DNA of 64,000 nt, from positions 18,661 to 82,660 of the forward strand of contig CAZJFS010000003.1 of assembly GCA_964545075.1 (NCBI GenBank), read 5' to 3'. Positions within the stretch are counted from its first letter, which is position 1; each line of letters starts with the position of its first letter. Made by a program: the position numbers and the translations under genes. Positions 34,595 through 57,222 of the stretch are shown in pieces. The notes under the pieces were generated by a model. The model did no database searches. It was given only the letters and a program-made list of their open reading frames with translations, and was not told where the DNA came from. This stretch comes from an uncultured bacterium (lineage in GTDB: Bacteria > Muiribacteriota > UBA9980).

Positions 34595-34597
34595 AAT

Positions 34598-34816: not shown

Positions 34817-34817
34817 T

Positions 34818-35354: not shown

Positions 35355-35411
35355 TTTAACCCTTTATCATTTCAGTTGTGAATTATATTATATCATCGGA
35401 TGCTTAATTAA

Positions 35412-35945
35412 TCAAATTAATTTTTCCAGAATCTTGCTTGTTCCGAGCGCTAAGAGACCGGCCAGGATTATCACCGGACCTGGATAATAAAGAGCGTTCA
35501 CGCCGGAAAGGGCCGGTAAAGCTTTTAATAATTCTATGCTCAGACCCGTAATCATAAAAATGCTGACGGAAACGGAGGCCATTATGGAGAAGTGTTTGAA
35601 ATATTCGGAAAATTTGGAGGCCGTTCTGGAATACCCGCCGAGATAAATGCCAGCCATTGAAAATGCGGTTAAAAAAATATAAATTTCAGAGTTCCATCCT
35701 ATGTAATAATTTTTAGACAAAAAGAAATTGTAGAGAGCGAGGTTGAATGGAAGCGAAACGAAAACTGCCGCGGGATATTTAAGCTTGATGTCATAATTTT
35801 TTAAGGGATATAAAAATGCGGCGGTGACGAACATGGCCGAGACGGAAAAAATGGAGAAAAAAATCGCGGAAGTCAGGCAGTCGACGGCCAGAAGAAATGG
35901 TAATATGCCGGTTATAGCTATTTTCACGTTTTTAAAATCGTTCAA
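35412..35945 (-). CDS. rnfE: RnfA/RnfE-family membrane subunit (RnfE position)
   Basis: It has 6 TM helices. GILPFLLAVDCLTSA matches LGLCPLLAVT in RnfE/NqrD. The gene overlaps rnfG by 4 bp. Confidence 0.6.
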   Translation of the reverse strand: MNDFKNVKIAITGILPFLLAVDCLTSAIFFSIFSVSAMFVTAAFLYPLKNYDIKLKYPAAVFVSLPFNLALYNFFLSKNYYIGWNSEIYIFLTAFSMAGIYLGGYSRTASKFSEYFKHFSIMASVSVSIFMITGLSIELLKALPALSGVNALYYPGPVIILAGLLALGTSKILEKLI

Positions 35946-36922: not shown

Positions 36923-36923
36923 A

Positions 36924-41290: not shown

Positions 41291-41300
41291 GCGAAAATAT

Positions 41301-42353
41301 ATGCAGCTTTCAGTTGTTTTAGCCATACCGCCCTCTATAGCATGTCTTTTTACTATATGTCTCGGCTTATTCATTCTGAGCCAGGGCGATCGTTCATATC
41401 TTTACCGTTTCTTCTTTTTCCTTTGCACCGGGCTTTCCATATATAACGCCGGCGTAGCGATGCTTTATCTTTCGGCGGATGCGTCGGCGGCTATGCGCTG
41501 GGCGTCTTTTTCACTGTACGGACTGGTTCTCGTTTTATGTCTGCTTCCACATTTCGCGGCGCTTTTTCTTTCACTATATGAAAAAGCTCACGTGAAATAC
41601 GCCATTTTATTCTTTTACGCTTCCGCCGGAGTTTTTGCCGCCGTAAATTATTATTCTTTACTTATAACCGGCGTGCATCAGACCTCTATCGGGTATGTGG
41701 CGGAAGTTGGCCGCGATTTTTATATTTTTTGCACGGCCCTGGTCATATCGATATTTTATTCATCCTACCTGTTTTTCAAAGTGTACATGGAGGCTTCGGA
41801 CGAGGATGTCCGGGTGAAAATAAGGCATATTTTTTTGGGGATACTGGTTTGCTCAGTTTTCGCCATAGCCGATATGCTGAAAAAGATAAACGGCATTTAC
41901 GTTAATTTTTCTACGCTCGAATACGGCATAATATTTTTCGCGGTCATGACGTCTTACGCGGTAGTCAAGCACCATTCGTTCGAGCTGGAAGTCGCTATGA
42001 GCCGCGGAATACTATATTCGCTTATGATGATATTCGTCGCGCTTTTATTCATAATGATAAGCGTATTTCTGGAACAGATAACCCAGAACTGGCTCGGTTC
42101 GAATTCTTTCCTGGTAAATATCATCAACGCCTTCCTGATAGCCGTGCTGTTCGAACCGATAAAAAACTTCGCGCAGCGGCTTTTAAACCGATATCTTTTC
42201 CCGAAAATAATGAAAATAGCCGGCATTGATGATGAGATAATAATAAATAATCAGGTGATAATCGATTACATAGCCAGAAATAAAATAGGCGAGCTTAAAG
42301 ACCTTAAAGATAAAATAGAGAGGATAATAAAAAATTATGAAGAACCGCGTTAG
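41301..42353 (+). CDS. Polytopic membrane protein resembling a histidine-kinase N-terminal 7TM sensor module, with no output domain
   Basis: It has about 7-8 TM helices and a charged C-terminal tail. No kinase or GGDEF domain is present. Confidence 0.4.
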   Translation: MQLSVVLAIPPSIACLFTICLGLFILSQGDRSYLYRFFFFLCTGLSIYNAGVAMLYLSADASAAMRWASFSLYGLVLVLCLLPHFAALFLSLYEKAHVKYAILFFYASAGVFAAVNYYSLLITGVHQTSIGYVAEVGRDFYIFCTALVISIFYSSYLFFKVYMEASDEDVRVKIRHIFLGILVCSVFAIADMLKKINGIYVNFSTLEYGIIFFAVMTSYAVVKHHSFELEVAMSRGILYSLMMIFVALLFIMISVFLEQITQNWLGSNSFLVNIINAFLIAVLFEPIKNFAQRLLNRYLFPKIMKIAGIDDEIIINNQVIIDYIARNKIGELKDLKDKIERIIKNYEEPR

Positions 42354-43169: not shown

Positions 43170-44912
43170 TTAAAAAGGCAAGCGTTCGCATGAAAGATTA
43201 AAATATCCGTTAGAAGTTTTGTTTCGGCCGTATTTCGTGAAATCGATCGGCAGCGCTTTGGGAGTTTCAAGATTCGGCTGCTTTTTTATCTCGATTCCGG
43301 CGAAAAGCGAATAAATTCCGACGGCTATTCCTTCGGCTATCGCGTCCTGATTGTTTTTTAAAAGCATTCTGTCCTTCGAATTCGAAAGATATCCGATTTC
43401 GATAAAGGCGGTTATAGCGTTGGTGAAAAGGGGGATTGCCCAATCGGAAATAAACGGTTCACCGTGTTTTCCGAGTAATTCGTCGGCCTGGGCGTTCGCG
43501 GCGCCATAAAGCGAACTGAAATTATTCATAAGGGAGAGTCTTATAAATCTTATAAGTTCCTGGGACGAGTAGAAATTATCTCCGCCGTATCCTTCCGGAC
43601 CGCCCGATCTTTTATAGCACTCGTAAATCGAATTTTCGCGCATGAAAAAAAGAATGAATGAACTTAGCGGCGAATTGGTATTGTAGCGCCATGTGACCAT
43701 CAGGTACCGAAGTCCGATGAATTTATTCGTGAACGCGCGAAATCCTGTAAAATAGGTGGCGGTGTCTGATATAATTGTTCTGGTATCTATCGTGGAGAGC
43801 TTCTTGAACGTGGCGGTTATGAAGTCGGCGACCTGGCCGTAATTGTTTTCGCGGTTATACGTTTTATTTGGCGATGCTCCAGCGCCGCTGGCCGTTATGA
43901 GATTATTGACGTTTGAAAAAAACTGGAAATGAGGGGCTATGACCGCCGACATTCCGCGTGCGGACTTGCTGGGGCTTGAATTGACGTGAAGGCATACCAC
44001 CAGGTCGGGAGATATCTGGTTTATGTAGGAGATTCTGCCGAGAGCCATTTCAGCCGACGGCGTTTTTCCGTTAAACGATGCTGGACTGTCAAAAAGCCTG
44101 TATTTGTTGTTGATATTCGCAACATTTTTGTCGGGTTCACTGTCATGGCTAAATTTTCGGGTCAGGATGGAATTGATGCGCACGCGCCTTACCGTGGCTC
44201 CCGGATCGTTCATATATTTTTGAAGGATTTTTGCGAAATCTGAAAATCCTTTTTCCGTTTTCGTCAAGGCCAGAAGGGCGTCGACCTTTTTGGCCACCTG
44301 GAGCGTCCATTCATGTTCGTATATGCCGTTGCTTTGAGCGCCGAAATTGTACGGAAGAAGGAAAGTCTTCGAGAATGGGTCCCAGTGATCGCCGGAGTTG
44401 AACCTGGCGGGTTCGTACTTTCCGCCGTGGCCCGGGTCTAAAACTACCGAAAATGAATCCTGCTCGTCCGTTATATTTGGAGTTGCGGAAATTCCGGCGG
44501 TAGAGGCGGATGCCGGAATGGCGGGTTTGGAATATTTGGGCGCAAAATACGTGACGGGATTGACTTTGGGAGCTTCCGGCGCGTAATCAGCTGGTTTCAC
44601 TGTTCGCGGAACGTTTATGACCGGAGCTTTTTTGGCCGGCGGTATGTTTGAGATGGCCGGCGCTGAAGCGGCCGCACCCGCGTTGGCGTCATTTTGAGGA
44701 AGCGTCCCGTTTACGGGTACGGCGGCCGGGGAATCCTTTTTTAAAGGAAACTGAGGCGAAGGATGAGCGCTTTTCATTGCGTTAAGGCGGGCGCGAAGCG
44801 AGTCAATAAGCTCTTTTCTTTCGGAATTGATCTCGGCGCGGCAAAGCTGGGCTATCATAAGAGCTGCCGAAATGCTAAAAACGAGAGTCAAAAAAAATCT
44901 GGATCTTTTCAA
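43170..44912 (-). CDS. Secreted divergent Amidase_3 (N-acetylmuramoyl-L-alanine amidase-like) family protein, paralog A (580 aa)
   Basis: It has a signal peptide and a Pro/Ala-rich linker. The Amidase_3 Zn-ligand motifs VVLDPGHGG, GIYEHEWTLQVAKKV and DLVVCLHVNSS are present. Confidence 0.55.
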   Translation of the reverse strand: MKRSRFFLTLVFSISAALMIAQLCRAEINSERKELIDSLRARLNAMKSAHPSPQFPLKKDSPAAVPVNGTLPQNDANAGAAASAPAISNIPPAKKAPVINVPRTVKPADYAPEAPKVNPVTYFAPKYSKPAIPASASTAGISATPNITDEQDSFSVVLDPGHGGKYEPARFNSGDHWDPFSKTFLLPYNFGAQSNGIYEHEWTLQVAKKVDALLALTKTEKGFSDFAKILQKYMNDPGATVRRVRINSILTRKFSHDSEPDKNVANINNKYRLFDSPASFNGKTPSAEMALGRISYINQISPDLVVCLHVNSSPSKSARGMSAVIAPHFQFFSNVNNLITASGAGASPNKTYNRENNYGQVADFITATFKKLSTIDTRTIISDTATYFTGFRAFTNKFIGLRYLMVTWRYNTNSPLSSFILFFMRENSIYECYKRSGGPEGYGGDNFYSSQELIRFIRLSLMNNFSSLYGAANAQADELLGKHGEPFISDWAIPLFTNAITAFIEIGYLSNSKDRMLLKNNQDAIAEGIAVGIYSLFAGIEIKKQPNLETPKALPIDFTKYGRNKTSNGYFNLSCERLPF

Positions 44913-45028
44913 TTTAAAATTACCTCACAAATTCTGGTTTAATAAAGCTAGCAACGTACTCTATACTTTTTAAAATAAAAGATCAGGTTACAATCTTTTA
45001 TTTTGATTATTTTAACATAAAACTGAAT

Positions 45029-45346
45029 TTATTTCCATATAATATTTATTTTATCGCCGGGCATGAATTCGCCGGACATTACTTCCTGGCGGATAGAAGA
45101 GTTATCGTAAACCGTGTATTTATGATGCCCGCTTGGAAGCGATATCCAGTAACTGGTTTCGGCGAATATCTGCGTTTCGAGCTTTCCGTCTATATAAAGA
45201 AGGACGGTTTCGCTTCCGAGATTAGTAAAGGCCGAACTTGTCGCGGCGTCGCAGTCCTTCTCATCGTTGTCAAGAATACATCCTGAATCAATGAAAAGAA
45301 CAAGAAATAAAAATAGTATCAGTAACAGTTCCGTTTTTCTTAGCAT
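45029..45346 (-). CDS. Small hypothetical lipoprotein (105 aa)
   Basis: The signal carries a DSGC lipobox. It lies between the two amidase-like paralogs. Confidence 0.45.
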   Translation of the reverse strand: MLRKTELLLILFLFLVLFIDSGCILDNDEKDCDAATSSAFTNLGSETVLLYIDGKLETQIFAETSYWISLPSGHHKYTVYDNSSIRQEVMSGEFMPGDKINIIWK

Positions 45347-45368
45347 GCCTTCACTTTATGACATTAAA

Positions 45369-47090
45369 TTACTTCTGTTGTTTTAAAACCGATCTGAAAT
45401 AATCGCCGTATTTGGTCATGTTGATCTTTTGGCCGAGTGGAAATTCCAGGGGTTCCTTAGAATATACCGGCGGTTCGGGTTGGGCCGCTTTCTGAGTTTT
45501 TTTAACGGCGGAAGGTTTCATTTTACTTTTTAATTTATTTAAAAGTATTGAAGTTCTTGGTTTTTCAAAAAAATCGGTCCGCGCCGCCTTCGGCTGTATT
45601 GATTTGCCGTCCGTATTCTGGAGCGAGGCGGCCAGCCGAGGGTTTGTCTTTAGAAGTGCGTCTTTGGTGTTCGCTATTTTTCTGGGCGTCATGCCGCATA
45701 AAAGCGAATATACCGAAACCGCCATAGATCTTGCGATGACATCTTTTTTATTCACAAGGATATTTCTGTCTTCAGGGTTTTCGAGATATCCGAGTTCTAC
45801 GTAGGCGGTCACCGCGTTTATAAGCTGCGGCAGCGCCCAGTCGGATATGAAAGGACGGCCGTGGTTTCCAAGATATTCGTTCGGGGTTTTTACCGCCGCT
45901 ATTTCGCCGGCGGGTTTAGCGCATTTAGAAGCGTAGTCTTTCCACAGGCCCATGCGGACATATTTCAGAATTTCTTCTGACGCGTAAAAATTGTCGCCTC
46001 CAAATCCAAGCGGCCCGCCGTCGCGGCGCATGGATTCCTCGGCTGAGCGTTCGCGGTGCCAGTATGAATCGGGGTTTTTATAACTTAAAAGGTTGTTGTA
46101 TTCATCGTCTTCCGAGTAACGCCATTGGACCATCTGCCAGCGTTTTCCTATGCTGCCGCGTGTGGCGGTGCGTTTTCCGGTAAAATAGGTGTCACTGTCG
46201 TTTATAAGATCGGAAAGTTTTCCTAAAACCATGTTGTCATAGTAGAACCAGGAAAGAACCCAGAAATAAGTCATGGCTGATCTCATGCCAAGCCTGTCTT
46301 TAATGGTTTTAACGAAGTCGAATACGCGATATCCGGGTATTATTACGGATGCCGGGCCGCGCATGCCGTGATTGGTCGAAGAATTGACATGGACGCATAG
46401 AACCAGTTCGGGCGCTTCCGCATTGATTTTGCTCATTCGGCCGGGGAAAAGGTTTGGCGACGGCTGTTTTTTAGCATTGAAGCTTTCGGGAGAATCAAAT
46501 AGCCGGAAATGTTTGTCCGCATTGTCGTCGCCCTTGTACTTAAGAGATTCATAAGAATCCACGCGGCTCATTTTAACATTGAATTTTATTCGTCTGTATT
46601 CTTCAGGTTTCATTATGCCATATTCGGCCAGAATTCTGGAAAAGTCACGCCATCCTTCGTCGGTGTTGGCTTTTTGAAGTATATCGAACACTTTTGAACA
46701 GATATCTAAGACTATGGCGTGTTCGCATTCTCCATCGTAGGCCGCTCCGAAATTGTAGTTGGTTAAAAACCTTTTGGCTTTTATATCCCAATGGTCGCCT
46801 TTGTTTTGGGAAGCGCGTTCGGAGGTTCCGCCGTGGCCCGGATCTAAAACGATCCTGTATTCTTCGAGATCCGGCGTGCGTCGCGTGTCGTTTTTTGAAG
46901 ACAGATGTTCGCCATTCTGCCCGTCAGGCGAACTATAGTCAAATAGCCGCGCTATAAAATTATTTTTTAATGACATGTTCAATCCCGCCTGCGCCGGTGT
47001 GGAAATCGTCGCGCATATTAAAATGGCGGCTAAGACAGGGTTGAGTTTTATAAGGTTGGCAAAAATTTGACGCAGCTTCAAAAATAACAT
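45369..47090 (-). CDS. Secreted divergent Amidase_3-like family protein, paralog B (573 aa)
   Basis: The motifs IVLDPGHGG, GECEHAIVLDICSKV and ELVLCVHVNSS are present. It is collinear with paralog A, including the shared C-terminal segment ISDWA(I/L)P…GYL(S/E)N. Confidence 0.55.
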   Translation of the reverse strand: MLFLKLRQIFANLIKLNPVLAAILICATISTPAQAGLNMSLKNNFIARLFDYSSPDGQNGEHLSSKNDTRRTPDLEEYRIVLDPGHGGTSERASQNKGDHWDIKAKRFLTNYNFGAAYDGECEHAIVLDICSKVFDILQKANTDEGWRDFSRILAEYGIMKPEEYRRIKFNVKMSRVDSYESLKYKGDDNADKHFRLFDSPESFNAKKQPSPNLFPGRMSKINAEAPELVLCVHVNSSTNHGMRGPASVIIPGYRVFDFVKTIKDRLGMRSAMTYFWVLSWFYYDNMVLGKLSDLINDSDTYFTGKRTATRGSIGKRWQMVQWRYSEDDEYNNLLSYKNPDSYWHRERSAEESMRRDGGPLGFGGDNFYASEEILKYVRMGLWKDYASKCAKPAGEIAAVKTPNEYLGNHGRPFISDWALPQLINAVTAYVELGYLENPEDRNILVNKKDVIARSMAVSVYSLLCGMTPRKIANTKDALLKTNPRLAASLQNTDGKSIQPKAARTDFFEKPRTSILLNKLKSKMKPSAVKKTQKAAQPEPPVYSKEPLEFPLGQKINMTKYGDYFRSVLKQQK

Positions 47091-47373: not shown

Positions 47374-48024
47374 TTAAGCCTGTTCCATGAAACGGGCTTT
47401 TCGTTCCATGGTTCGAATGACCGATATGACGCGCCCCAATATTTTGACGTCGTTGACATATATGGGCTGCATTTCACAGTTGGCTGGCTGCAGGCGGATC
47501 CGATCGTGCTCGCGGTAAAATCTTTTGAGCGTCGCCGTTTCGTTTTCAACGAGGGCTACGACGATGTCGCCATTAGCGGCATGGTTTTGTTTTCTGACAA
47601 GGACCATATCGCCGTCGTCGATGAGATCTTCGATCATGCTTTTTCCACGAACTTTCAGGATGAACGCTTCACCGTTTGTGAGAAGCGACCTGGCGACCTG
47701 GATGGTCTCCTGATAGTCTTCGTAAGCGAAAATCGGCTGTCCGGCGGCTATTTCGCCGATGACGGGGACTTCGATCAAATCGTCGCCGTGTGTGTCGGCG
47801 TATTGCCATCTGACGGGTTTTATGGAGCGTGATTTTCCCGAGGATTTTAAGATATGACCCTTTCTTTCAAGTTCCGAAAGGTGATAATGTATGGTTGAAG
47901 TTGATTTCGTTCCGATGAAAGTTCCGATCTCTTTTATGCTTGGGGCGGAGCCTGTGGTTTTCATTTCGGATACTATGAAGTCAAGGATCTGTTTCTGGCG
48001 CTCGGTAAGTTTTTCTATGGTCAT
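47374..48024 (-). CDS. lexA: LexA repressor (SOS regulator, S24 peptidase)
   Basis: The N-terminal wHTH reads LTERQKQILDFI. The Ala-Gly cleavage site reads IAAGQP. The catalytic Ser and Lys lie in …KVRGKSM… and …TLKRF…. The start was set at MTIEKL; the ORF track begins at 48054. Confidence 0.9.
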   Translation of the reverse strand: MTIEKLTERQKQILDFIVSEMKTTGSAPSIKEIGTFIGTKSTSTIHYHLSELERKGHILKSSGKSRSIKPVRWQYADTHGDDLIEVPVIGEIAAGQPIFAYEDYQETIQVARSLLTNGEAFILKVRGKSMIEDLIDDGDMVLVRKQNHAANGDIVVALVENETATLKRFYREHDRIRLQPANCEMQPIYVNDVKILGRVISVIRTMERKARFMEQA

Positions 48025-48057
48025 TATTATTTCACCCCTTGATAAAAAGTACACTCA

Positions 48058-48075
48058 TTCGAAAATATTTTCGAA
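48058..48075. promoter_or_regulatory. Putative LexA operator (perfect 18-bp palindrome TTCGAAAATATTTTCGAA; Cheo-box-like CGAA-N6-TTCG)
   Basis: The perfect palindrome was read from the sequence, 34 bp upstream of the lexA start. It resembles the Gram-positive-type SOS box CGAACnnnnGTTCG. Confidence 0.5.
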
Positions 48076-48156
48076 CGCATAAACTAATTTTATAAAAATT
48101 AGAAAATAAAGTCAAGACTTTTAAAAAAAAACATGAAAATAATGAAATTTATAGGC

Positions 48157-48184
48157 TTGATTTATATTTTAAATATGCTACAAT
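48157..48184 (+). promoter_or_regulatory. Sigma70-like promoter for the radical-SAM array (TTGATT-16bp-TACAAT)
   Basis: TTGATT at 48157-48162 and TACAAT at 48179-48184, about 120 bp upstream of the first radical SAM gene. Confidence 0.45.
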
Positions 48185-48306: not shown

Positions 48307-49827
48307 ATGAAGAGGTCCGGTTATAAAATTTTACTTCTCGACGCCCCTCAATCCATCTGGAAATGGTTTGATGGTACTCTGCCTTCCCCGGCTCTGGCCA
48401 TATTCGCATCATATTTTAAAACCTTGTACGAACTTAAAATACTCGATCTGAATATCGAAAAAAAACCATGGACGCTTCTAAAAAAGGTGCTGGCTGAGTT
48501 CGAACCTGACCTTGTCGCGTTGCCATGCACGCACACATGCCATTTGAACGAGGTCGAAGCGAGCCTCCGGCTTATCAGGAAATTTTCGCCTAAGTCCGTT
48601 ATAATTGGCGGTGGAGTTCATTTCAACGTGTTTTATAAGGAGTTTCTAGAAAAGAACCTCGTTGATTTTGTATGTCTCGGTGAAGGCGAACTCACATTCA
48701 CCGAACTCGCCGGAGCTTTGAGCGATATACGCCGGAGCTATGGCACGCCATCGGCTGTTTCATTCGAAGAAAAAATAGGCCGTATTAAAAAAATAGACGG
48801 GCTGGCGTTTTCGGTGAACGATGAGATAATTAAAACCGGCGCGAGAAAACAGATCGAAAATCTGGATACGATACCTCTTCCGTCTTATGAGCTTTTTCAG
48901 ATGGAACGCTATAAAATTCCTATATACGGCGGAAACGAGACCTTTGGAATGACTTTCGGGCGCGGATGCCGCAACAGGTGCTGTTATTGCTCGGAGTCGT
49001 TCGGATGGAACTATACGCTTCGAAGAAATTCGCCGGCCTATGCCGTGAAGCATATCGAATTATTGCATAGCGTCTTTAACCGGCGGACCTTTATTTTCGC
49101 CGACACTGATTTTCTCGTCGATAAAAAATGGTGCGAGGAATTCGTGGCCATTATTAAAGAAAAGAAGTTGAAGATAAATTTTCATATCCAGACGGCGTGC
49201 AGGACGCTTTTGAAAAATGTGGAGCTGCTTCCGAAATTGAAAGAAATAGGCCTGTTTGAAGTAATGCTCGGAACGGAGTCCCCGTTTCAGAAAGTTCTGG
49301 ATAAATTGAAAAGTTTTCCCCAGAGCGTAGAGATAATGACGAATGCCATGAAAGCGGTTAAAGGCAACGGTCTTCTTCTTATGGCGATGATGTTTTGGGG
49401 GACCGAATATGACGATGCTCAGACGCTGCGGCAGGGCCTTAAATTTTTTGATAAGTACGCGGATATAGTATGCCCAAATGCCATGACGCCTTATCCGGGA
49501 ACGCCCCTTTACAATGAATTGACGGAGAAAGGCGTTATTCGCGTTGACGACCTTTCGCTCTACGATCAATCTCATATAATAGTACCCGCCGGAAACATGA
49601 GTTATGCTCAGACGCGCTGGGCATTCGAAAAGGAGCTCATACTGCACTTTAATTTCAATCCTAAATTTTATATGGGGCTTTTTTCGAAAAACAGGTTTTT
49701 ACGGACTAATTATTGGCATTATTTAAAACTGATATGGATGCAGGCTTTCGAAGGGCTTATGTCGCCGGTCAAATACAGGAAGGAATTATACGCTAAGAGC
49801 GAGTTCGATAAAATAATGGGGTCATAG
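48307..49827 (+). CDS. B12-binding-domain radical SAM protein, paralog 1 (506 aa)
   Basis: The N-terminal Rossmann-like B12-binding-type domain reads KILLLDAP…GGGVHFN…GEGE. The rSAM motif GCRNRCCYCSES is Cx3Cx2C. A shared C-terminal domain carries MMxWGTE and TPYPGTPLY. Confidence 0.75.
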   Translation: MKRSGYKILLLDAPQSIWKWFDGTLPSPALAIFASYFKTLYELKILDLNIEKKPWTLLKKVLAEFEPDLVALPCTHTCHLNEVEASLRLIRKFSPKSVIIGGGVHFNVFYKEFLEKNLVDFVCLGEGELTFTELAGALSDIRRSYGTPSAVSFEEKIGRIKKIDGLAFSVNDEIIKTGARKQIENLDTIPLPSYELFQMERYKIPIYGGNETFGMTFGRGCRNRCCYCSESFGWNYTLRRNSPAYAVKHIELLHSVFNRRTFIFADTDFLVDKKWCEEFVAIIKEKKLKINFHIQTACRTLLKNVELLPKLKEIGLFEVMLGTESPFQKVLDKLKSFPQSVEIMTNAMKAVKGNGLLLMAMMFWGTEYDDAQTLRQGLKFFDKYADIVCPNAMTPYPGTPLYNELTEKGVIRVDDLSLYDQSHIIVPAGNMSYAQTRWAFEKELILHFNFNPKFYMGLFSKNRFLRTNYWHYLKLIWMQAFEGLMSPVKYRKELYAKSEFDKIMGS

Positions 49828-49840
49828 CGTAAGCATATAT

Positions 49841-51367
49841 ATGAAGAATCAGGAATATAAAATACTTCTGGTCGACGCCCCTGAAAGGCTTTCACTCTGG
49901 TTCGACGGAACGATCCCCTCGCCGGCGCTTTCCATACTCGCGTCCTACGTTAAAACCAGATACGAGCTGAAGGTGCTGGACCTGAATATTGAAGAGCGGC
50001 CGTGGAACGTTTTGAAAATGGCGCTGGATGAATTTAAACCTCACCTGATCGGGCTTTCATGCACCCATACATGCCAGATGAACGAAGTAATGGCCGTCGC
50101 CCGGCTCGTCAGAAGATTTTCGCCTTCATCGCTTATCGTCGGAGGCGGAATATATTTCAGCGTTTTTCATGAAGAAGCTATTTGCGATGGATTGATCGAT
50201 ATAGCGGTAATAGGCGAAGGAGAAATGACGTTTTCCGCTCTCGCTAAAACGTTAAGCGCCATAGAGGCTGAAAGGAAAGCGGGAGCGCAAATTACGCGGG
50301 CGGATATCTCGCGAAGGCTTGAAACGATTGATGGGCTGGCGTTCAAAGACGAAACGGGTTCGATAATTAAGAGCTCGCCAAGAAAATATATTGAAAATCT
50401 CGATTCGATACCGTTCCCCTCTTATGAACTCTATCCGATCGATAAATATAAATCGCCCACTTTCGGAGGCGGCGAGGCATTCGGAATGACGTTCTCGCGC
50501 GGATGCGCCAACAGATGTTATTTCTGTTCCGAATCCGCCGGATGGAACCATACGCTCAGGCGCCATTCGCCCGAATACGCGGTGCGCCATCTGGAGATCA
50601 TATACCGCAACTACGGCCGCAGGGTATTCGTTTTCGGCGATACGGACTTTTTGTCGGATAAAAAATGGTGCGAAGATTTTATCGCCCTGATAAAAGCGAA
50701 AAAAATAACGATAAATTTTCATGTGCAGGCTTCGTGCAATTCTGTCATTAAAAACGAGGAGCTCCTTCCGAAACTGAAAGAAATAGGTCTTTTCGAGGTT
50801 ATGATCGGAGCTGAATCGCCGTTTCAAAAGATACTCTCTAAATTGAAAAAGCCATACAGCGATAAGGAAACGGTCGTCGGGGCGATGGAGCGCGTAAAAA
50901 AACACGGGCTTTTACTTATGGCGATGCTTGTCTGGGGAACCGAGTTCGACGACGAAAGCACGCTGCACGAAGGACTTTATTTTTTTGATAAATACGCTGA
51001 TATCGTCTGTCCCTGCCTTTTGACGCCTTATCCCGGTACGGAGCTATACGATGAGATGAAGTCGAAGGGACATATTAATGTCGCCGATTTCGCCTTCTAC
51101 GACCAGGCTCATGTTATAGTTCCCGCGGGTAATATGAGCTATAAGGAGACAAGGCGGGTGTATGAGAAGGAACTTTGCCTCTATTTCAATCTTAACCCGA
51201 AATTTTATATGAAGCTTCTTTCAAAAGACGCTTTTATGAGGATGAACCAGGCGGCGTTCTTTAAGATGGTATGGGCCCGCACGTTCGAGTGCGTCACAAG
51301 CCAGGGCGGCTATAAAAAGGACCTTTTTAACAACAGCGAGTATCTTAAGCTAATGAACATGAGGTGA
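49841..51367 (+). CDS. B12-binding-domain radical SAM protein, paralog 2 (508 aa)
   Basis: It is collinear with paralog 1 (KILLVDAPE…; GCANRCYFCSES; TPYPGTELY). It starts 13 bp after paralog 1. Confidence 0.75.
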   Translation: MKNQEYKILLVDAPERLSLWFDGTIPSPALSILASYVKTRYELKVLDLNIEERPWNVLKMALDEFKPHLIGLSCTHTCQMNEVMAVARLVRRFSPSSLIVGGGIYFSVFHEEAICDGLIDIAVIGEGEMTFSALAKTLSAIEAERKAGAQITRADISRRLETIDGLAFKDETGSIIKSSPRKYIENLDSIPFPSYELYPIDKYKSPTFGGGEAFGMTFSRGCANRCYFCSESAGWNHTLRRHSPEYAVRHLEIIYRNYGRRVFVFGDTDFLSDKKWCEDFIALIKAKKITINFHVQASCNSVIKNEELLPKLKEIGLFEVMIGAESPFQKILSKLKKPYSDKETVVGAMERVKKHGLLLMAMLVWGTEFDDESTLHEGLYFFDKYADIVCPCLLTPYPGTELYDEMKSKGHINVADFAFYDQAHVIVPAGNMSYKETRRVYEKELCLYFNLNPKFYMKLLSKDAFMRMNQAAFFKMVWARTFECVTSQGGYKKDLFNNSEYLKLMNMR

Positions 51368-51373
51368 GCCGAT

Positions 51374-52870
51374 ATGAAAGTATTGTTTTTAGACCCGATC
51401 CATAAGGTTTGGGAGTTTTTCAGGGGACTGACCGCGAATCCGGCGCTTATATACCTTGCAGCCGTGGCGCGCCGCGATTTTGACGTAAAGGTATACGACG
51501 CTTACGCCGAATCGGGCAGGCCGTGGAATAAAACCGCGGAATATCTTGAAAAAGAGCGCCCTGACGTCGTTTGTCTTCCCGGCTCGATCCCGGCTTTCTG
51601 GTACGATGTTCTCAACTGCGCGCGCCTGGTGCGCGAGATTCTTCCTGACGCAAAGATCGTCACCGGCGGTTATATCTCAAATCAGTTGTGGCGCGATGGA
51701 CTCGCGAGCGGCCATATCGATTATATAGTTATTGGCGAGGGCGAGGTCACGATGATGGAATTATTGAAGGCTATAAATGGCGGCGCGTCCGGTTTAGCCG
51801 AAATTAAGGGGCTCGCATATCTCAAGGACGGCAAACCTTTCCAGACGGCTGAACGCGGTTTCATAGAGGATCTCGACACGCTTCCGCTGCCGGCTTATGA
51901 TCTGTTTCCGATGCACCGCTATTCTCTGGCACCGTTCGGCGGCAATATCGGCTTTACAGCGACATTCGCGCGCGGATGTACCGGCCGCTGCAAGTTCTGT
52001 TCGGAAACGCTTCTGTGGCGTCATTGCTGGCGGGGCCACAGCGCCGAATATATGGTCGAGGCGCTTTCACTGCTTAGGTACAAATATAACAAGCGGGTGT
52101 TTTATATAGGCGACGACGATTTTTTACACGATCCTGAGCGCACCGAAAAATTCACGGAACTTATACTGAAAAATAAGATCGACATTAAAATGTGGATACA
52201 GACCACCTGCCATAACGTGGTCAGGAACGCGAAATTGCTGGCGGGCCTTAAAAAGGCTGGCGTCTATCAGATTATGGTGGGCATCGAAACGCCTAAGCCA
52301 AAGGGCCTGAAAGTGCTTAACAAGCCTCAGGACTTCGACCTTGTAATGCGCGCGCTCGAAGCGCTGAAACCCCACGAATTCATAATAATGGGCATGATGA
52401 TGTGGGGAACGCCATGGGATACGAAGCAGGACCTGATCGATAATCTCGAATTTCTGGACGAGCACTGCGATATAATCGGCCCCGACGCTGTTACGCCATG
52501 GCCTGGAACGCCTTATTATGACGAGTGTGAAAAGATGGGCGCGATCGAAGTGCGCGACCTCACGCAATACGATATGACAAACTGCATAACCCGCACGGCC
52601 GAACTTTCGGCTGCCGAGTCCGATTTCTATTACAAAAAAACCGTCGGAAAACATCTCATATTCAACAAAAAATTCCTGGGCAACTATTTATTTTCCAAGA
52701 AGCCGCTCTACAGGACATACGTGAATATGTTCGTGAAGATGGGCTGGAGTTTTTTCACTATGAAGCCGTGGACGCAGAAGAACTATCAGAGTTTCGACGA
52801 ATTCTATCCTGAATTTATCGCTAAAAAGACTGCCTATGAAATGCAGAAAACCGGCGTTATGGCGCGTTGA
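51374..52870 (+). CDS. B12-binding-domain radical SAM protein, paralog 3 (498 aa)
   Basis: The N-terminus is MKVLFLDPIHKVWEFF… and the rSAM motif is GCTGRCKFCSET. It starts 6 bp after paralog 2. Confidence 0.75.
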   Translation: MKVLFLDPIHKVWEFFRGLTANPALIYLAAVARRDFDVKVYDAYAESGRPWNKTAEYLEKERPDVVCLPGSIPAFWYDVLNCARLVREILPDAKIVTGGYISNQLWRDGLASGHIDYIVIGEGEVTMMELLKAINGGASGLAEIKGLAYLKDGKPFQTAERGFIEDLDTLPLPAYDLFPMHRYSLAPFGGNIGFTATFARGCTGRCKFCSETLLWRHCWRGHSAEYMVEALSLLRYKYNKRVFYIGDDDFLHDPERTEKFTELILKNKIDIKMWIQTTCHNVVRNAKLLAGLKKAGVYQIMVGIETPKPKGLKVLNKPQDFDLVMRALEALKPHEFIIMGMMMWGTPWDTKQDLIDNLEFLDEHCDIIGPDAVTPWPGTPYYDECEKMGAIEVRDLTQYDMTNCITRTAELSAAESDFYYKKTVGKHLIFNKKFLGNYLFSKKPLYRTYVNMFVKMGWSFFTMKPWTQKNYQSFDEFYPEFIAKKTAYEMQKTGVMAR

Positions 52871-53003
52871 TATCTTATTCGCCGGCCTTTTCGCGCGCGG
52901 CAGGATTTTTTCAGGCCGTTTATAAAAAGGTCCTTCATAGTTTAATGACTGATCGCTTTAACGGTAACAAGTATTTTAAGTTAATGGATATGGGGTGATT
53001 GGA

Positions 53004-54497
53004 ATGAAAGTATTATTTTTGGATCCACTGCATAAGGTTTGGGAATTTTTTCGTGGACTTACGGCTTCGCCGGCTCTTATATATCTTGCCGCCGTGGCGC
53101 GTCGCGAATTCGACGTAAGAGTATTTGACGCATCCATGGAGTCCAAGGATCCGTGGAACAGGACCGCGGAATATCTCTTGCGCGAAAGGCCCGACGTGGT
53201 TTGTATAACCGGCTCTATAACCGGTTTCTGGAATGATTCGCAGAACGCCGCGAAGCTCGTGCGCGAAACGCTTCCGGAAACCAGGATAATAACCGGCGGC
53301 TATATTGCCTCGCGTCTCTGGAATGAAGCGCTTCAAAGCGGGTTTTTCGATTTCGTCGTCATAGACGAAGGCGAACTGACTTTGCTTGAATTACTGAGCG
53401 CGCTCAATTCAAATTCCTCGGCGGATTATTCAAAGATAAGAGGGCTCGCTTATTTGGAAAAAGGCGTCCCCCGAAAAAACGTGGACCGTGAATTTATAGC
53501 CGATCTGGATACATTGCCGCTGCCGGCTTATGATATGTTCCCGATGGATCGTTATTCGCTGGCGCCATTCGGCGGTCACATCGGTTTCGCGCTCAGCTTC
53601 AACCGCGGCTGTCAGAACAAATGCAAATTCTGCTCCGAGACGCTTCAATGGAAACATATGTGGCGCGGACACGGCGCCGAATATATGGTTGAAGTTTTAG
53701 AGCTATTGAATAAAAAATATAATAAAAAAGTTTTTTACGTCGGCGACGATGATTTTTTACACGACCGTGAGCGCACTATAAAATTCATAGAACTCATGGA
53801 CAAAAAGAAGCTCGATATAAAAATGTGGATACAGACCACATGCTATAGCGCTATCGCGAATGTAGACCTTTTAGCGGGGTTAAAACGCATAGGCGTCCAC
53901 CAGTTCATGATGGGGATCGAAACGCCGAAACCGCTGGGAATGAAAAATCTCAACAAGCCACAAAACATCGATATCGTCATGAAAGCGCTCGAAACGGTCA
54001 AGCCGTTCGGATTCATTATGATGGGAATGCTTATGTGGGGCGCGCCCTGGGATAAAAAGGAAGACCTCGATTACGCTCTCGATTTTCTCGGCAAACATTG
54101 CGATATCATCGGGCCGAACGCCACCACTCCCTGGCCTGGAACGCCATATTACGATGAATGTGAAAAGATGGGCGCGATCGAAGTGCGAGACCTTACCAAA
54201 TATGACATGACCAACGTCATAACCAGGACCGCCGAACTTTCGGCCGCCGAAGCCGATTTTTACTACAAGAAGACGGTCGGAAAATTTTTGATGCTCAATA
54301 AGAAATTTCTTGGAAATTACATGTTTTCAAAAAAACCGCTCTATCGTGAATATATAAATATGTTCGTCAAGATGGGCTGGCGTTTCTTTATAATGAAACC
54401 CTGGTATCAGAAGAATTATCAGCCTTTCGAAGAGTTTTATTACGATTTTATCGCGAAAAAAGCGTCGGTGAAAATGACCGCGCAGCTTGTGAAATGA
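53004..54497 (+). CDS. B12-binding-domain radical SAM protein, paralog 4 (~497 aa)
   Basis: The N-terminus is MKVLFLDPLHKVWEFF… and the rSAM motif is GCQNKCKFCSET. It is about 70% identical to paralog 3 by eye. It follows a 133-bp gap. Confidence 0.75.
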   Translation: MKVLFLDPLHKVWEFFRGLTASPALIYLAAVARREFDVRVFDASMESKDPWNRTAEYLLRERPDVVCITGSITGFWNDSQNAAKLVRETLPETRIITGGYIASRLWNEALQSGFFDFVVIDEGELTLLELLSALNSNSSADYSKIRGLAYLEKGVPRKNVDREFIADLDTLPLPAYDMFPMDRYSLAPFGGHIGFALSFNRGCQNKCKFCSETLQWKHMWRGHGAEYMVEVLELLNKKYNKKVFYVGDDDFLHDRERTIKFIELMDKKKLDIKMWIQTTCYSAIANVDLLAGLKRIGVHQFMMGIETPKPLGMKNLNKPQNIDIVMKALETVKPFGFIMMGMLMWGAPWDKKEDLDYALDFLGKHCDIIGPNATTPWPGTPYYDECEKMGAIEVRDLTKYDMTNVITRTAELSAAEADFYYKKTVGKFLMLNKKFLGNYMFSKKPLYREYINMFVKMGWRFFIMKPWYQKNYQPFEEFYYDFIAKKASVKMTAQLVK

Positions 54498-56017
54498 GGA
54501 TACTTTTTTTAGATCCGCCACACGCGCCATGGGATTTTTTTCCGGGCCGAATGCCTTCGCCGGGCCTTATGGCCATTGTTCCGTTCGCCGTAGGCGCGGG
54601 ATGCGACGTGGCCGTGCTCGATTTATCGCTTGAGATCGATCCGGCGGCGGCACTTGAAAAAAAGGCCGCCTCGTTCGCGCCGGACGTCGTGGCGATATCC
54701 GGCTCTAAATCGGCTTTCGCATTCGAGACGGCGAACGCCGCCATGCTTGCTCGAAAGTTCCTTCCCGCGGCGGTTATAACGGGCGGCGGAAATTTCGCTT
54801 CGTCATACGCCGGCGACCTCGTTTCGCGCGGGCTATTCGATATAATAATAAAAGGCGAAGGAGAACTTCCTTTTTCGGCCATTTTAAAGGCCCTGAAAAA
54901 AAACAAGCCGGAAGATATAAAAGCTATAGCGGGCCTCATATATTCAAAAGAAATGATGGCTTTCCCAAAAAGTTACCGCAAGCGGCTTTCCGGGATTTTT
55001 TCAAAATTTGAGATTTCGCGGGCCGAAGGGTTCCGTTCATGCGCGAATGTTTTTGACCGAGAAAAAATTTTTGAGTTCGAAGATACCGGTTCCGCCGAAT
55101 TTATAGCGGATATGGATACGCTGCCGCTTCCAGCTTTCGAATATTTCGACATGGATAGTTATACGCTGCCGCCGCTCGGCGGGAAAACCGGCTTCGTTCA
55201 AAGCTTCAGCCGGGGATGCGGAAAGCGCTGTTCGTTCTGCGCCGATTCGCTCTTCTGGGGGCATACCTGGCGAGGCTTTTCGGCCGAACGGTGCGTTGAA
55301 ATATTAAAGACCCTCTCGTCCGCGTATGGCCGCCGGATAATTTATTTCGGCGACGCCGACTTTTTCTGGAACCGGAACCGGAACCTTAAATTTTTAGAGC
55401 TCCTCGAAAAAGAAAGGGAAGCCGGCGGGCTTAAAATAAATTTCTGGCTGCAGAGTTCCGTCGATAATATATTGGCGAATCGCGATCTTTTGAAAAGGTA
55501 TCGTAAAGCCGGCTTGTATCAAATAATGTGCGGCTTTGAAAGCGTTTCTGGCGCCGCCCAGAGCGCTTTCAAAAAGGTCCATTCTATCGATAAAATGACG
55601 GAGGCGGCGCGAGCGGTGAAAAACGCAGGCATAATAATCATGGGGATGATGATGTGGGGCGATTACGGCGACGACGAAATAACGCTCGGCGAGAACCTCG
55701 ATTTTCTGGTAAAAAACTGCGACGTTATAGGGCCTAACACAGTGACCCCTCATTACGGCACGCCGTATTTCGAAGAATGCGAAAAGCGCGGCCTGGTCAC
55801 GAAATATTCGACGCTTGGAAGCGACCAGTGCTACGTCATCATGCCGACTTACTCGCTCGATATTTCCGGCGCGGAAAAAGTTTATAAAGACATGGTTTTA
55901 AAGACCCTGATATCGAAAAAAAAGTTCATAGGGAACTATCTTTCCGCTCCCGGGCTCAGGATAAAAAAAATTCTTTCAGATCTTATCGAAAATGGATATG
56001 AGGGGAAAGCGTCATGA
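54494..56017 (+). CDS. B12-binding-domain radical SAM protein, paralog 5 (507 aa, most divergent)
   Basis: The N-terminus is MRILFLDPPHAPWDFF… and the rSAM motif is GCGKRCSFCADS. The C-terminal region carries MMMWGD and TPHYGTPYF. Its start overlaps the paralog 4 stop by 4 bp (ATGA). Confidence 0.75.
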   Translation: MRILFLDPPHAPWDFFPGRMPSPGLMAIVPFAVGAGCDVAVLDLSLEIDPAAALEKKAASFAPDVVAISGSKSAFAFETANAAMLARKFLPAAVITGGGNFASSYAGDLVSRGLFDIIIKGEGELPFSAILKALKKNKPEDIKAIAGLIYSKEMMAFPKSYRKRLSGIFSKFEISRAEGFRSCANVFDREKIFEFEDTGSAEFIADMDTLPLPAFEYFDMDSYTLPPLGGKTGFVQSFSRGCGKRCSFCADSLFWGHTWRGFSAERCVEILKTLSSAYGRRIIYFGDADFFWNRNRNLKFLELLEKEREAGGLKINFWLQSSVDNILANRDLLKRYRKAGLYQIMCGFESVSGAAQSAFKKVHSIDKMTEAARAVKNAGIIIMGMMMWGDYGDDEITLGENLDFLVKNCDVIGPNTVTPHYGTPYFEECEKRGLVTKYSTLGSDQCYVIMPTYSLDISGAEKVYKDMVLKTLISKKKFIGNYLSAPGLRIKKILSDLIENGYEGKAS

Positions 56018-57222
56018 AATTTATGGATGATCTTTTTAGGACGGGATATTTTTTAAATTTCAGCGAAAAATTATTTCTATATCTTATAAAATTCATGACG
56101 CTCGTATTCGCCGTTATTTATTATTTTCATTATGCTTTTGTCATCGACCCCACATTCAATAAGTTTTTATTTTTATATTTTTTGACTTTCATAGTCTCGG
56201 GTTTTTTCTTCACTCTTCTTCCGCTGAAAGACGAATGGATATGCGCGCTGGAATTTTTCAAAATCCAGGCAGGGCTTTACAATGCGGATAAAAAGTTATA
56301 CGAAATTGCATCGGAAAAACTCGCCGTGGAAGCGAAAATAACGAGAGATGAATCGGCTGAAGCGCTCGCTGGTTCCTTCGCCAGCTTTAAAAGCGATTAT
56401 TTCATAGTTTACCCTGCCTGGTTCGCCGTATTGGCGATGACGTTCGTCATCGAGGCGTTTGTCTTCGTGAAGTTGGATCCGCTTCTTGTCCAGAAAAATT
56501 TTGCCGTTCTTTCGGCTTTTCTGACCCTCGTCCATGTGTCGGCGATGAATTCGACATTTGAAAATTTTTCCGGCCTTCCCGGCTCTACTCACTCAGGATT
56601 TTCGATTCTTCTGGTGTGCCTCTTCGCCGTCCGTTCCGTGTTTTTCGCGATTCTTTATAGAAACGCGTGTTTTCAAGTTGCGATCGCCCTGATTCTGACT
56701 TATTTCTTCGGTAAATTATTCGCGCTTTTATATTACGGAGATGGGTTTCAGATATTCGTCAGGACTCGCGACAGGAACATATGGCGGATGGCTTTCGACG
56801 CGCGCATGACGCGCGTTGTAGAATGCGAAAAGCTTCCATTTACGATGAAATGCCGTTTTCTTAAAACGCCCTATTCGACCGCTATAGCTTTTTATGAATC
56901 GGGTGCGCGCGTTTCCGAATTTCATTTCACTCCTTACCGGCTTGGAGTTGAAAAAGAAAGCGTGGAAACGGCGGCCAGGATTTTCGCCGAGCGGCTTAAG
57001 ATCAGCGACGGCTTAAAGGCCACGGGAAGCGTTGCCGATCTTTTCGAAGAGATTACGCTGCTCGACCTGGCGAGAAAATACGGCCGCGAACAGACCGCAG
57101 TGAGCGTTTCGCTGATCGCGTCATCTTATCTTATGTGTTATGAACTTTTTCTCATTTATACGGGGGCGAATTCGCCTAACGATAATTATTTCGAGATCAT
57201 CAAAGTGATTTTGGGATTCTGA
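56014..57222 (+). CDS. Hypothetical polytopic membrane protein (N-terminal ~6 TM helices plus a C-terminal soluble domain), translationally coupled to the rSAM array
   Basis: Its start overlaps the paralog 5 stop by 4 bp. The N-terminal half is hydrophobic, the C-terminal 170 aa are charged and soluble, and no family is recognised. Confidence 0.55.
   Translation: MKFMDDLFRTGYFLNFSEKLFLYLIKFMTLVFAVIYYFHYAFVIDPTFNKFLFLYFLTFIVSGFFFTLLPLKDEWICALEFFKIQAGLYNADKKLYEIASEKLAVEAKITRDESAEALAGSFASFKSDYFIVYPAWFAVLAMTFVIEAFVFVKLDPLLVQKNFAVLSAFLTLVHVSAMNSTFENFSGLPGSTHSGFSILLVCLFAVRSVFFAILYRNACFQVAIALILTYFFGKLFALLYYGDGFQIFVRTRDRNIWRMAFDARMTRVVECEKLPFTMKCRFLKTPYSTAIAFYESGARVSEFHFTPYRLGVEKESVETAARIFAERLKISDGLKATGSVADLFEEITLLDLARKYGREQTAVSVSLIASSYLMCYELFLIYTGANSPNDNYFEIIKVILGF

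Follow-up and report, generated by a model that had tools for sequence, protein, structure and literature searches.

Class B radical S-adenosylmethionine (SAM) enzymes, in which a B12-type Rossmann domain precedes a radical SAM core, carry out some of the hardest carbon chemistry known, and uncultivated anaerobes harbor many runs of such genes to which no function has been assigned. Among the described members, HpnP/HpnR, HpnJ, GrsA/GrsB and Gmm are soluble or peripheral proteins that act on inert carbons of membrane lipids, and BchE is a tetrapyrrole enzyme. Lipid-acting class B enzymes are often encoded apart from the lipid-synthesis genes, and their C-terminal helical region is thought to bind the substrate (PMC13459092). 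Such distant substrate genes are usual for lipid-tailoring enzymes (HpnP/R, Grs) and unusual for enzymes that act on ribosomally synthesized and post-translationally modified peptides (RiPPs) (PMC13459092). In groundwater Elusimicrobia, a suite of radical SAM genes surrounds Group VI nitrogenase-like (Nfl) genes, including those of GWF2_62_30 (L011 in our collection), and a tetrapyrrole product has been predicted for it (Meheust et al., 10.1101/765248); the product of this Nfl region was still uncharacterized in 2026 (PMC13474568). Here, we analyze a 64,000-nucleotide stretch of DNA from an uncultured bacterium (contig CAZJFS010000003.1; referred to as the window), in which five consecutive class B radical SAM genes, R1–R5, and a gene for a polytopic membrane protein, M6, form a same-strand array. 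The closest database proteins belong to the candidate phylum Candidatus Wallbacteria (R3, 85–86% identity; M6, 100% to a partial protein from a metagenome-assembled genome), a relative of which is the source of the window, and in the literature we found nothing on radical SAM arrays of this lineage.

We infer that R1–R5 and M6 constitute one co-transcribed tailoring cassette, which is old within Wallbacteria and comprises four non-redundant enzyme types plus an extra copy, R4. As for its function, we tentatively suggest a membrane-acting unit for C–H functionalization, the substrate of which might be a lipid made elsewhere, with an acyl or isoprenoid chain as the likeliest candidate. The cassette is compact and tractable, with six genes, no other tailoring genes, clear sets of orthologs and a membrane protein of an orphan family, and it represents a good target for expression.

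Architecture of the array and of the R1–R5 proteins

The open reading frames (ORFs) lie exactly where an initial annotation, made from the sequence of the window, had placed them, with five same-strand genes for proteins of 498–508 residues followed by the gene for a 402-residue membrane protein. The features of the array are:

48307-49827, + strand: R1, class B radical SAM paralog of the R1 type, 506 residues; CxxxCxxC at residues 221-228, CTHTC at residues 74-78
49841-51367, + strand: R2, class B radical SAM paralog of the R2 type, 508 residues; CTHTC at residues 74-78
51374-52870, + strand: R3, class B radical SAM paralog of the R3 type, 498 residues
53004-54497 (ATG start) or from the GTG at 52995, + strand: R4, second R3-type paralog, 497 residues (ATG) or 500 residues (GTG)
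54494-56017, + strand: R5, class B radical SAM paralog of the R5 type, 507 residues; 4-bp overlaps with R4 and M6
56014-57222, + strand: M6, polytopic membrane protein of an orphan family, 402 residues
52871-53003, + strand: R3–R4 spacer, the sole real gap of the array and the seam of R4 insertion or retention
48157-48184, + strand: candidate sigma-70-type promoter, TTGATT-16-TACAAT with TG, from a consensus scan only

R1 and R2 are separated by 13 bp and R2 and R3 by 6 bp, and the R4–R5 and R5–M6 junctions are 4-bp ATGA overlaps, all in agreement with the initial annotation; the 133 bp given there between R3 and R4 hold for the ATG start of R4, the GTG leaving 124 bp. As the ATG at 53004 is preceded by a GGGGTG box and yields an MKVLFLD N-terminus identical to that of R3, it is the better start. 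The R3–R4 spacer showed no convincing terminator and no Rfam match, and its fold is no more stable than those of shuffled sequences (z = -0.46).

All five proteins pass the Pfam gathering thresholds for the B12-binding-type domain and the radical SAM core, with PF02310 scores of 53.1, 53.2, 49.7, 44.6 and 35.7 bits for R1–R5 (threshold 32.1) and PF04055 scores of 49.7–68 bits (threshold 29.5; R1, 53.7 bits). The CxxxCxxC motif is intact in R1–R5, as had been proposed along with the B12-type domain, and in every ortholog examined, and GEGE and GG motifs are conserved in the B12-type Rossmann domain. R1–R5 are confirmed as real, intact class B (B12-domain) radical SAM proteins. Two C-terminal motifs initially ascribed to all five proteins proved less uniform: R1, R3 and R5 match MMxWG exactly, whereas R2 and R4 have ML(V/M)WG, and R1–R4 match TP(Y/W)PGT exactly, whereas R5 has TPHYGT. 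R5 also carries an insertion of ~40 residues that separates the B12 and radical SAM domains. A DUF4070 domain (PF13282), which had been anticipated as well, was not found in any of R1–R5 at E ≤ 0.01 in the Pfam scan. Hydropathy analysis gave no transmembrane (TM) segment for R1–R5. In R1–R4, the last 85 residues are enriched in aromatic residues (16–25% vs 11–12% elsewhere) and bear a net charge of +6 to +10.

No NCBIfam equivalog or subfamily cutoff was reached by R1–R5; no characterized family can be assigned to them, and their cysteine motifs are not degenerate. The top curated profile for all five is BchE (TIGR02026), with 164, 147, 192, 168 and 140 bits for R1–R5 (cutoff 481.35) and an alignment that spans nearly the full length of R1–R4. 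It is followed, in varying order, by HpnR (TIGR04367; 86–116 bits, cutoff 650), HpnJ (TIGR03471; 58–97 bits, cutoff 577.6) and ApyD (NF050148; 58–117 bits, cutoff 750), with other class B models further down; TIGR04072 gave 54–75 bits (cutoff 360) and TIGR03975 53–82 bits (cutoff 281.85), and all scores are far below threshold. Because BchE is also the top profile for relatives of the R proteins in fatty acid synthase (FAS)-type lipid clusters and in peptide clusters (see below), the match marks a broad subfamily only. In PADLOC, the sole matches were weak ones of the radical SAM cores of R3 and R4 (24–31 bits, candidate model PDC-M51A), with none for M6; on these grounds, an assignment of the cassette to anti-phage defense was rejected.

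R3, the one paralog we modeled, gave an AlphaFold2 (AF2) model from a deep alignment with a predicted local distance difference test score (pLDDT) of 94.9. The top solved matches are AprD4, MgmA, OxsB, TsrM, CysS and TokK (Foldseek E-values of 1e-24 to 1e-16, TM scores of 0.6–0.7, 14–19% identity), and the model shares the Rossmann domain, the partial TIM barrel and the C-terminal domain with these class B enzymes. Their substrates range from aminoglycosides, a protein, a nucleoside and an amino acid to small molecules linked to a carrier, and the substrate of R3 can therefore not be read from the fold. An exact-sequence look-up of R3 returned no record.

The paralog types are distinguished by conserved cysteines. 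A CTHTC motif in the B12 domain is invariant in R1/R2-type proteins of every lineage (window 48526-48540 in R1 and 50060-50074 in R2), and the same types have an extra conserved cysteine, in the sequence IVCP, near the C-terminal motif. R3/R4/R5-type proteins lack both, with G-S/A-x-x-x-F in the place of CTHTC. Because CTHTC and the extra cysteine are confined to the R1/R2 types, the paralog types may well differ in chemistry or cofactor handling; judging from its residues, CTHTC could be an auxiliary metal site or provide an unusual cobalamin environment.

The array and M6 among Wallbacteria lineages

R1 and R2 are 57% identical and R3 and R4 70%, while R5 is 31–38% identical to the others, consistent with the 2+2+1 pattern noted at first; given BLAST E-values of 1e-77 to 0 among R1–R5, this paralogy is not due to chance. 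The pattern had initially been taken to indicate stepwise local duplication rather than an ancient array, a view that the comparison with other Wallbacteria genomes overturns. Genes of the R1, R2, R3 and R5 types and M6 follow one another in this order in GWC2_49_35 (L001/L002), a much diverged lineage, as well as in L007/L008 and L009. R1 orthologs, 64–88% identical, hold the corresponding place in the arrays of L001, L005, L007 and L009; R2 orthologs (56–91%) are present in L001, L007 and L009 and R5 orthologs in L001, L005, L007, L009 and L094/L095. A reduced variant in GCA_041441465.1 (L005/L006) comprises R1-type, R3-type and R5-type genes, without an R2 ortholog and without M6. Synteny of five radical SAM genes plus a membrane protein, as initially envisaged, is thereby borne out for the four types and M6, but not for the fifth gene, R4, which is absent from the syntenic L007 and L009 and from GWC2.

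The R1-R2-R3-R5-M6 order and its tight or overlapping junctions are kept across lineages with near-saturated synonymous sites. The flanks of the cassette vary by lineage (pilus genes, a molybdo-enzyme or LexA), so that conservation as a unit concerns the cassette alone. Ratios of nonsynonymous to synonymous substitution rates (dN/dS) relative to orthologs are 0.07 for R2 (vs L007), 0.09 for R3, 0.12 for R5 and 0.14–0.16 for M6, showing that these four are functional genes under purifying selection. The array of four types, R1, R2, R3 and R5, plus M6 is thus ancient within Wallbacteria and vertically kept.

R3 is the most conserved member of the array; it is 85–89% identical to orthologs in other genomes (GWC2/L007), yet only 70% identical to R4, from which it differs by saturation at synonymous sites. 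Separate orthologs exist for R4 (P0007, 100% identity; P0006, 85%). In neighbor-joining trees (200 bootstraps) of the R proteins, their orthologs and related B12-type radical SAM proteins from other loci, the R clade received 98% bootstrap support; R3-type and R5-type proteins grouped with 97%, the R3 type including orthologs from Elusimicrobia (see below) with 100%, Wallbacteria R3, R4 and GWC2 proteins with 96%, and R3 with the R3-type protein of GWC2 (GWC2_R3t), to the exclusion of R4, with 100%. The saturated synonymous sites, the separate 85% ortholog and the last of these groupings identify R4 as an old extra R3-type copy rather than a recent tandem duplicate.

Runs of several B12-type radical SAM paralogs turned out to be common in uncultivated anaerobes (L058, L063, L081, L084, L090, L096), so that an array of five stands out less than the initial annotation had assumed. 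It could even be that the R enzymes share no pathway and are independent isozymes acting on unrelated substrates, clustered through their duplication history, with M6 as an unrelated neighbor. Such an arrangement would fit the varying array content (three, four or five radical SAM genes, with or without M6), the location of M6 elsewhere in one genome and the retention in, or transfer to, Elusimicrobia of no R gene other than R3. However, it sits poorly with the order and junctions conserved across near-saturated lineages, with an R5–M6 adjacency that recurs in at least four lineages, and with flanks that change while the cassette stays together; we regard it as very improbable.

M6 gave no Pfam, NCBIfam or PADLOC match. 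A word-indexed search with a family profile recovered 15 members of its family, and an exhaustive hidden Markov model (HMM) search only eight true clusters among 1.84 billion representatives. Hydropathy indicates at least 6–7 hydrophobic helices. Combined with the secondary structure of an AF2 model of low confidence (pLDDT 43 even with the family alignment), it suggests a layout of about six N-terminal TM helices, a Lys/Arg-rich β/α soluble domain of ~110 residues and one further TM helix at the C-terminus. The family alignment contains the invariant motifs GYxLxxSE, LLPLK, STHxGF, TxDxNI, CxFxxTP and KYGxxQT, which, by the positive-inside rule, would be cytoplasmic. An M6 homolog follows the R5-type gene in the window, L001, L007, L009 and L094/L095. 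Divergence within the family is very rapid: P0133 is only 25% identical to M6, although it is probably encoded on the same contig as P0001, an 86% ortholog of R3. As regards the coupled membrane protein of the initial annotation, the R5–M6 overlap stands, but the attachment is not invariable, as M6 is absent from the three-gene variant.

A contrast in rates was observed between R3, 85–86% identical between Wallbacteria lineages, and M6, only 25–28% identical between the same lineages; M6 nevertheless keeps its invariant polar motifs, and its dN/dS is ~0.15 vs close relatives.

Candidate substrates and a proposed mechanism

The initial annotation had seen no recognizable substrate, cobalamin, lipid or tailoring gene nearby, and indeed none is present in the 64-kb window, nor is there a conserved precursor-like small ORF, a tetrapyrrole gene, a riboswitch or another RNA family. 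The vicinity of the array is likewise free of substrate and scaffold genes in each of five Wallbacteria loci. The window and the Wallbacteria loci are devoid of hem, bch, cob and nfl genes, of CrtI-like, U32-like and Nfl genes, and of peptide and SPASM genes; within 10 kb of the array in the five loci, no peptide, SPASM, protease or transporter gene was detected. A 46-residue ORF overlapping the M6 stop codon was rejected as a precursor, being antisense to the 3' end of a neighboring gene and not homologous to a 59-residue ORF that follows M6 in L007, and the latter was rejected for the same lack of homology. Upstream of R1, there is no usable precursor ORF. Flanking secreted proteins were likewise rejected as a shared partner, as the 287-residue protein of the window and the 246-residue protein of L005 are unrelated.

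Only R3 has orthologs outside Wallbacteria, namely in Elusimicrobia (59–65% identity), where they lie within large clusters rich in radical SAM genes; other B12-type radical SAM proteins of these clusters share only ~25% identity with R1–R5. All five contexts of the R3 ortholog include a CrtI-family flavoprotein, and M6 is absent from them. A conserved partner of ~185 residues was considered and rejected, because the three proteins concerned are unrelated to each other and to M6. In four of the five contexts (L003/L004, L090, L096, L103), a gene for a small peptide and a gene for a PapB-like SPASM maturase lie directly beside the R3 ortholog, in two orientations; the remaining context (L091/L011) has a U32-family protein pair instead of this module. 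Representative coordinates are:

L003:9642-9752 with L003:8078-9565, - strand: peptide and SPASM genes, two-gene module
L090:9638-9745, - strand: peptide gene of the peptide–SPASM module
L096:11556-11657 with 11729-13216, + strand: peptide and SPASM genes, two-gene module

The peptide comprises 27–47 residues, is Lys-rich and has the invariant C-terminus …LSRYCRSGRVLW. A pattern scan of metagenomes (L097-L151) produced 55 matches, 52 of which encode a real peptide; wherever the downstream sequence was long enough, a gene for a PapB/QhpD-like radical SAM/SPASM maturase of ~500 residues followed in practically all cases. We found no NCBIfam model for the module and no literature on the peptide; the pair is apparently an autonomous, widespread and undescribed module, to judge by these gene contexts. 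Across taxa, it mostly occurs without an R3-type gene. At ~9 of the 52 peptide loci, other BchE-like B12-type radical SAM genes, with or without U32 genes, are situated directly downstream; their products form a separate clade, with 0% bootstrap support for a grouping with the R clade. None of the peptide-bearing metagenome loci could be assigned to Wallbacteria. By analogy, the conservation of the peptide core resembles that of cofactor precursors (PqqA, MftA) more than that of antibiotics.

Nearly all enzymes of the clusters in L003, L090, L096 and L136 are strongly cationic, as is the peptide, with net charges of +16 to +27 for SPASM proteins, +11 to +13 for B12-type radical SAM and U32 proteins, and +10 to +16 for the peptide. 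Cationic enzymes and a cationic peptide would be odd binding partners, so that a third, anionic component may be involved, for instance a membrane or a nucleic acid.

These contexts bear on the idea that the R enzymes modify a peptide or protein encoded in trans, either the …LSRYCRSGRVLW peptide or another protein, with each paralog type acting on a different residue and M6 serving in export, processing or immunity. The R3 ortholog adjoins the peptide and SPASM genes despite their differing orientation, the module itself is real and widespread, and some of its loci have recruited other BchE-like enzymes. Moreover, models of RiPP methylases (ApyD, TIGR03975) are among the better profile matches of R3 and R4, and the third structural match of R3, behind two AprD4 chains, is the class B enzyme MgmA, which, like Mmp10, modifies a protein, namely methyl-coenzyme M reductase. 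Wallbacteria do carry RiPP enzymes; OspR homologs from this lineage have been characterized (PMC8597712). However, the window and the 10 kb around the array in the five Wallbacteria loci lack peptide, SPASM, protease and transporter genes, there is no conservation among the small ORFs that follow M6, the module mostly occurs without an R3-type gene and is missing from one R3 ortholog context (L091/L011), the radical SAM enzymes recruited by the module belong to another clade, and no peptide locus is tied to Wallbacteria. In addition, the tailoring genes of RiPPs nearly always share a cluster with the precursor gene, which counts against a peptide in trans. We consider such a substrate a serious candidate, albeit a rather doubtful one, and only slightly less probable than a lipid.

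Another conceivable role is the tailoring of a tetrapyrrole or another cofactor, in the manner of BchE, BchQ or BchR and related to the Group VI Nfl pathway of Elusimicrobia. BchE is the best curated model for R1–R5, at nearly full length for R1–R4; the R3 ortholog in L003 lies ~9 kb from an NflH/NflD-like fusion gene of Group VI, with several small radical SAM genes nearby; and a tetrapyrrole product is what Meheust et al. predicted for this radical SAM suite (10.1101/765248). The R proteins nevertheless stay far below the BchE cutoff, BchE is the top profile for lipid-cluster and peptide-cluster relatives alike, no hem, bch, cob or nfl gene accompanies the array, and a membrane partner would not be expected for a soluble cofactor pathway. 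Taken together, this role seems very unlikely to us.

The R clade and its nearest outgroups form a joint clade with 98% bootstrap support. One outgroup is a radical SAM protein of ~501 residues from Thermodesulfobacteriota, the gene of which is always preceded by one for a U32-like protein homologous to those in Elusimicrobia. The other is a BchE-like protein (L071:10001-11437) encoded in a cluster with genes for an acyl carrier protein (ACP), FabD, FabF, a thioesterase and an LpxL-like protein, together with a TIGR04072 member (403 bits).

Both settings are of interest in their own right. The deltaproteobacterial cluster (L071:5133-16183; also L077 and L021) encodes a BcrAD-type ATPase, an LpxL-like acyltransferase, an ACP, a FabD-like protein, a 4HBT thioesterase, four B12-type radical SAM proteins and FabF, a gene content that marks it as a putative ladderane-type lipid biosynthesis cluster outside anammox bacteria. 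Pairs of a divergent U32-family protein (~390–425 residues) and a BchE-like B12-type radical SAM protein are encoded in L015:8724-11506, L013, L014, L016, L018, L022, L024, L091:11514-13879 and L136:759-3513, with a 4-bp overlap in L015 and adjacent same-strand genes in the remaining loci from Thermodesulfobacteriota. U32 homologs (37% identity) are found beside one Elusimicrobia R3 ortholog and downstream of some metagenome peptide–SPASM modules. The U32 family includes oxygen-independent hydroxylases, and by analogy the pair may be an anaerobic module that hydroxylates and alkylates; we found nothing in the literature on U32 and B12-type radical SAM pairs.

Returning to a lipid substrate, we favor it on account of the M6 coupling, the basic aromatic tails of the R proteins and the lack of a precursor in the five Wallbacteria loci, to which the outgroup in a lipid cluster and the association with CrtI-like proteins add. 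Pairing of a phytoene-desaturase-like (CrtI-type) partner with radical SAM enzymes has been invoked for ladderane biosynthesis (PMC13459092). The lack of TM segments in the R proteins and the basic aromatic tails of R1–R4 would be compatible with enzymes acting at a membrane surface. The lipid substrate of the initial annotation has thereby gained some support at the family level, from the FAS-type outgroup, but it is no longer the sole serious candidate, given the peptide beside the R3 orthologs.

Several observations weigh against a lipid-acting, methylating cassette. The window and the Wallbacteria loci contain no lipid biosynthesis, acyl-carrier or isoprenoid gene, and the lipid-cluster relative is only ~30% identical to the R proteins, its function itself being predicted. 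The best profile match of the R proteins is a tetrapyrrole enzyme, and R3 orthologs adjoin a peptide–SPASM module in most of their contexts and, in L003 at least, lie ~9 kb from an Nfl-type gene. The basic aromatic tail would fit another anionic partner equally well. AprD4, the best structural match of R3, is a 1,2-diol dehydratase and no methylase and is not known to use cobalamin; as it shares the fold, the R proteins cannot be taken for granted as cobalamin users or as methylases. Finally, M6 is missing from the three-gene variant, in the genome of which an M6 homolog (32% identity) is encoded on another contig, one base after an operon for a tetratricopeptide repeat (TPR) protein, a CN-hydrolase and a 7-TM protein (L092:6973-11236). 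M6 is thus often, though not necessarily, linked to the array. The orthologous TPR/CN-hydrolase/7-TM operon of the window is located at 39345-42353 (+ strand), 6 kb upstream of the array, and a functional link of M6 with this operon is possible.

With these reservations, we suggest the following mechanism for a cassette acting on a membrane lipid, by analogy with the radical SAM superfamily. The [4Fe-4S] cluster held by CxxxCxxC would, in each enzyme, cleave SAM to a 5'-deoxyadenosyl radical, which would take a hydrogen from an unactivated carbon of the substrate. The substrate radical would most likely be quenched by a methyl group from methylcobalamin bound in the N-terminal Rossmann domain; some paralogs might form C–C bonds instead, as in BchE or Grs, and the R1/R2 types, with CTHTC and the extra cysteine, would be the likeliest to differ in chemistry. 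The paralog types could act serially, or at different positions, on a single substrate made elsewhere in the genome. Their action would take place on the cytoplasmic side of the membrane, where M6, translationally coupled to R5, might dock them or present the substrate.

In its boldest form, which we hold to be rather unlikely, the cassette would represent a new oxygen-independent pathway, in which four types of B12-type radical SAM enzymes docked on M6 add methyl groups and/or C–C links to a Wallbacteria lipid; or else, R3-type enzymes would make a cofactor derived from the …LSRYCRSGRVLW peptide and shared with the radical SAM/Nfl clusters of Elusimicrobia. In the former case, one would face a lipid class without known biosynthetic genes, possibly a source of orphan sedimentary biomarkers, and a new anaerobic route of lipid remodeling that might explain methylated or cyclized lipids of unknown origin. 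A peptide substrate would link Wallbacteria to the widespread peptide–SPASM system and to the radical SAM/nitrogenase-like clusters of Elusimicrobia.

Surroundings of the array and relation to described systems

The rest of the window resembles an ordinary chromosome of an anaerobe, with genes for Rnf, LutABC, an ABC transporter, LexA, amidases and sensor kinases. The region 32562-39226 (- strand) encodes an Rnf-type complex, of which RnfC and RnfD were recognized ahead of three ORFs without an assignment and a poly-ferredoxin, and then a radical SAM protein of the AmmeMemoRadiSam system (310 bits, cutoff 220); the Rnf-type genes point to a strictly anaerobic, ferredoxin-based energy metabolism. 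A 312-residue protein encoded at 24018-24956 (+ strand) consists nearly entirely of ankyrin repeats, which are uncommon in free-living bacteria. At 43170-47090 (- strand), two paralog-like proteins of 580 and 573 residues carry split or partial Amidase_3 domains and flank a 105-residue ORF, an arrangement that recurs upstream of LexA in L009.

Between R1 and the divergent lexA gene (47374-48054, - strand) lies an AT-rich region of 252 bp that contains the candidate promoter listed above; promoter-like sites in this region are no more numerous than expected from shuffles, and the candidate is therefore weak. A perfect palindrome, TTCGAAAATATTTTCGAA, occupies positions 48056-48077, just upstream of the lexA start, and resembles the Gram-positive SOS box CGAAC-N4-GTTCG; it is probably a LexA operator. 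Because the palindrome is ~230 bp away from R1, SOS control of the array is unlikely.

The M6 family, the clade of four R types and their combination in the absence of a scaffold gene are undescribed, and each of the known systems shares part of this picture. R1–R5 have the same B12 Rossmann domain, radical SAM core and C-terminal helical domain as BchE, but differ in scoring 140–192 bits vs its cutoff of 481 and in the lack of a bch or tetrapyrrole context in the window. With HpnP/HpnR, HpnJ, GrsA/GrsB and Gmm, the R proteins have the enzyme class in common. HpnR and HpnJ are their second- to fourth-best profile matches, far below the cutoffs, while the likeness to GrsA/GrsB and Gmm rests on the shared class B architecture; no shc/hpn or archaeal lipid genes are found here, and no Hpn, Grs or Gmm system is known to combine four or five paralogs within an operon or to include a partner like M6.

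The TIGR04072-type clusters (ladderane-type; anammox bacteria and Deltaproteobacteria) are similar to the cassette in having several B12-type radical SAM paralogs per operon, yet they include ACP, FabD, FabF, thioesterase and acyltransferase genes, which the Wallbacteria cassette lacks, and their own function is unproven. PoyB/PoyC-type enzymes (TIGR03975) and ApyD (NF050148) belong to the same enzyme class, with several radical SAM tailoring genes devoted to one substrate; in contrast to their systems, no Wallbacteria locus holds a precursor, epimerase, protease or transporter gene. The suite around the Group VI nitrogenase-like genes of Elusimicrobia also contains runs of B12-type radical SAM paralogs in uncultivated anaerobes, but only R3 is shared: its Nfl, CrtI-like, U32-like, SPASM and peptide genes do not occur in the Wallbacteria loci, nor M6 in Elusimicrobia. 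With AprD4, MgmA, OxsB, TsrM, CysS and TokK, finally, R3 has the fold in common over its whole length, at 14–19% sequence identity.

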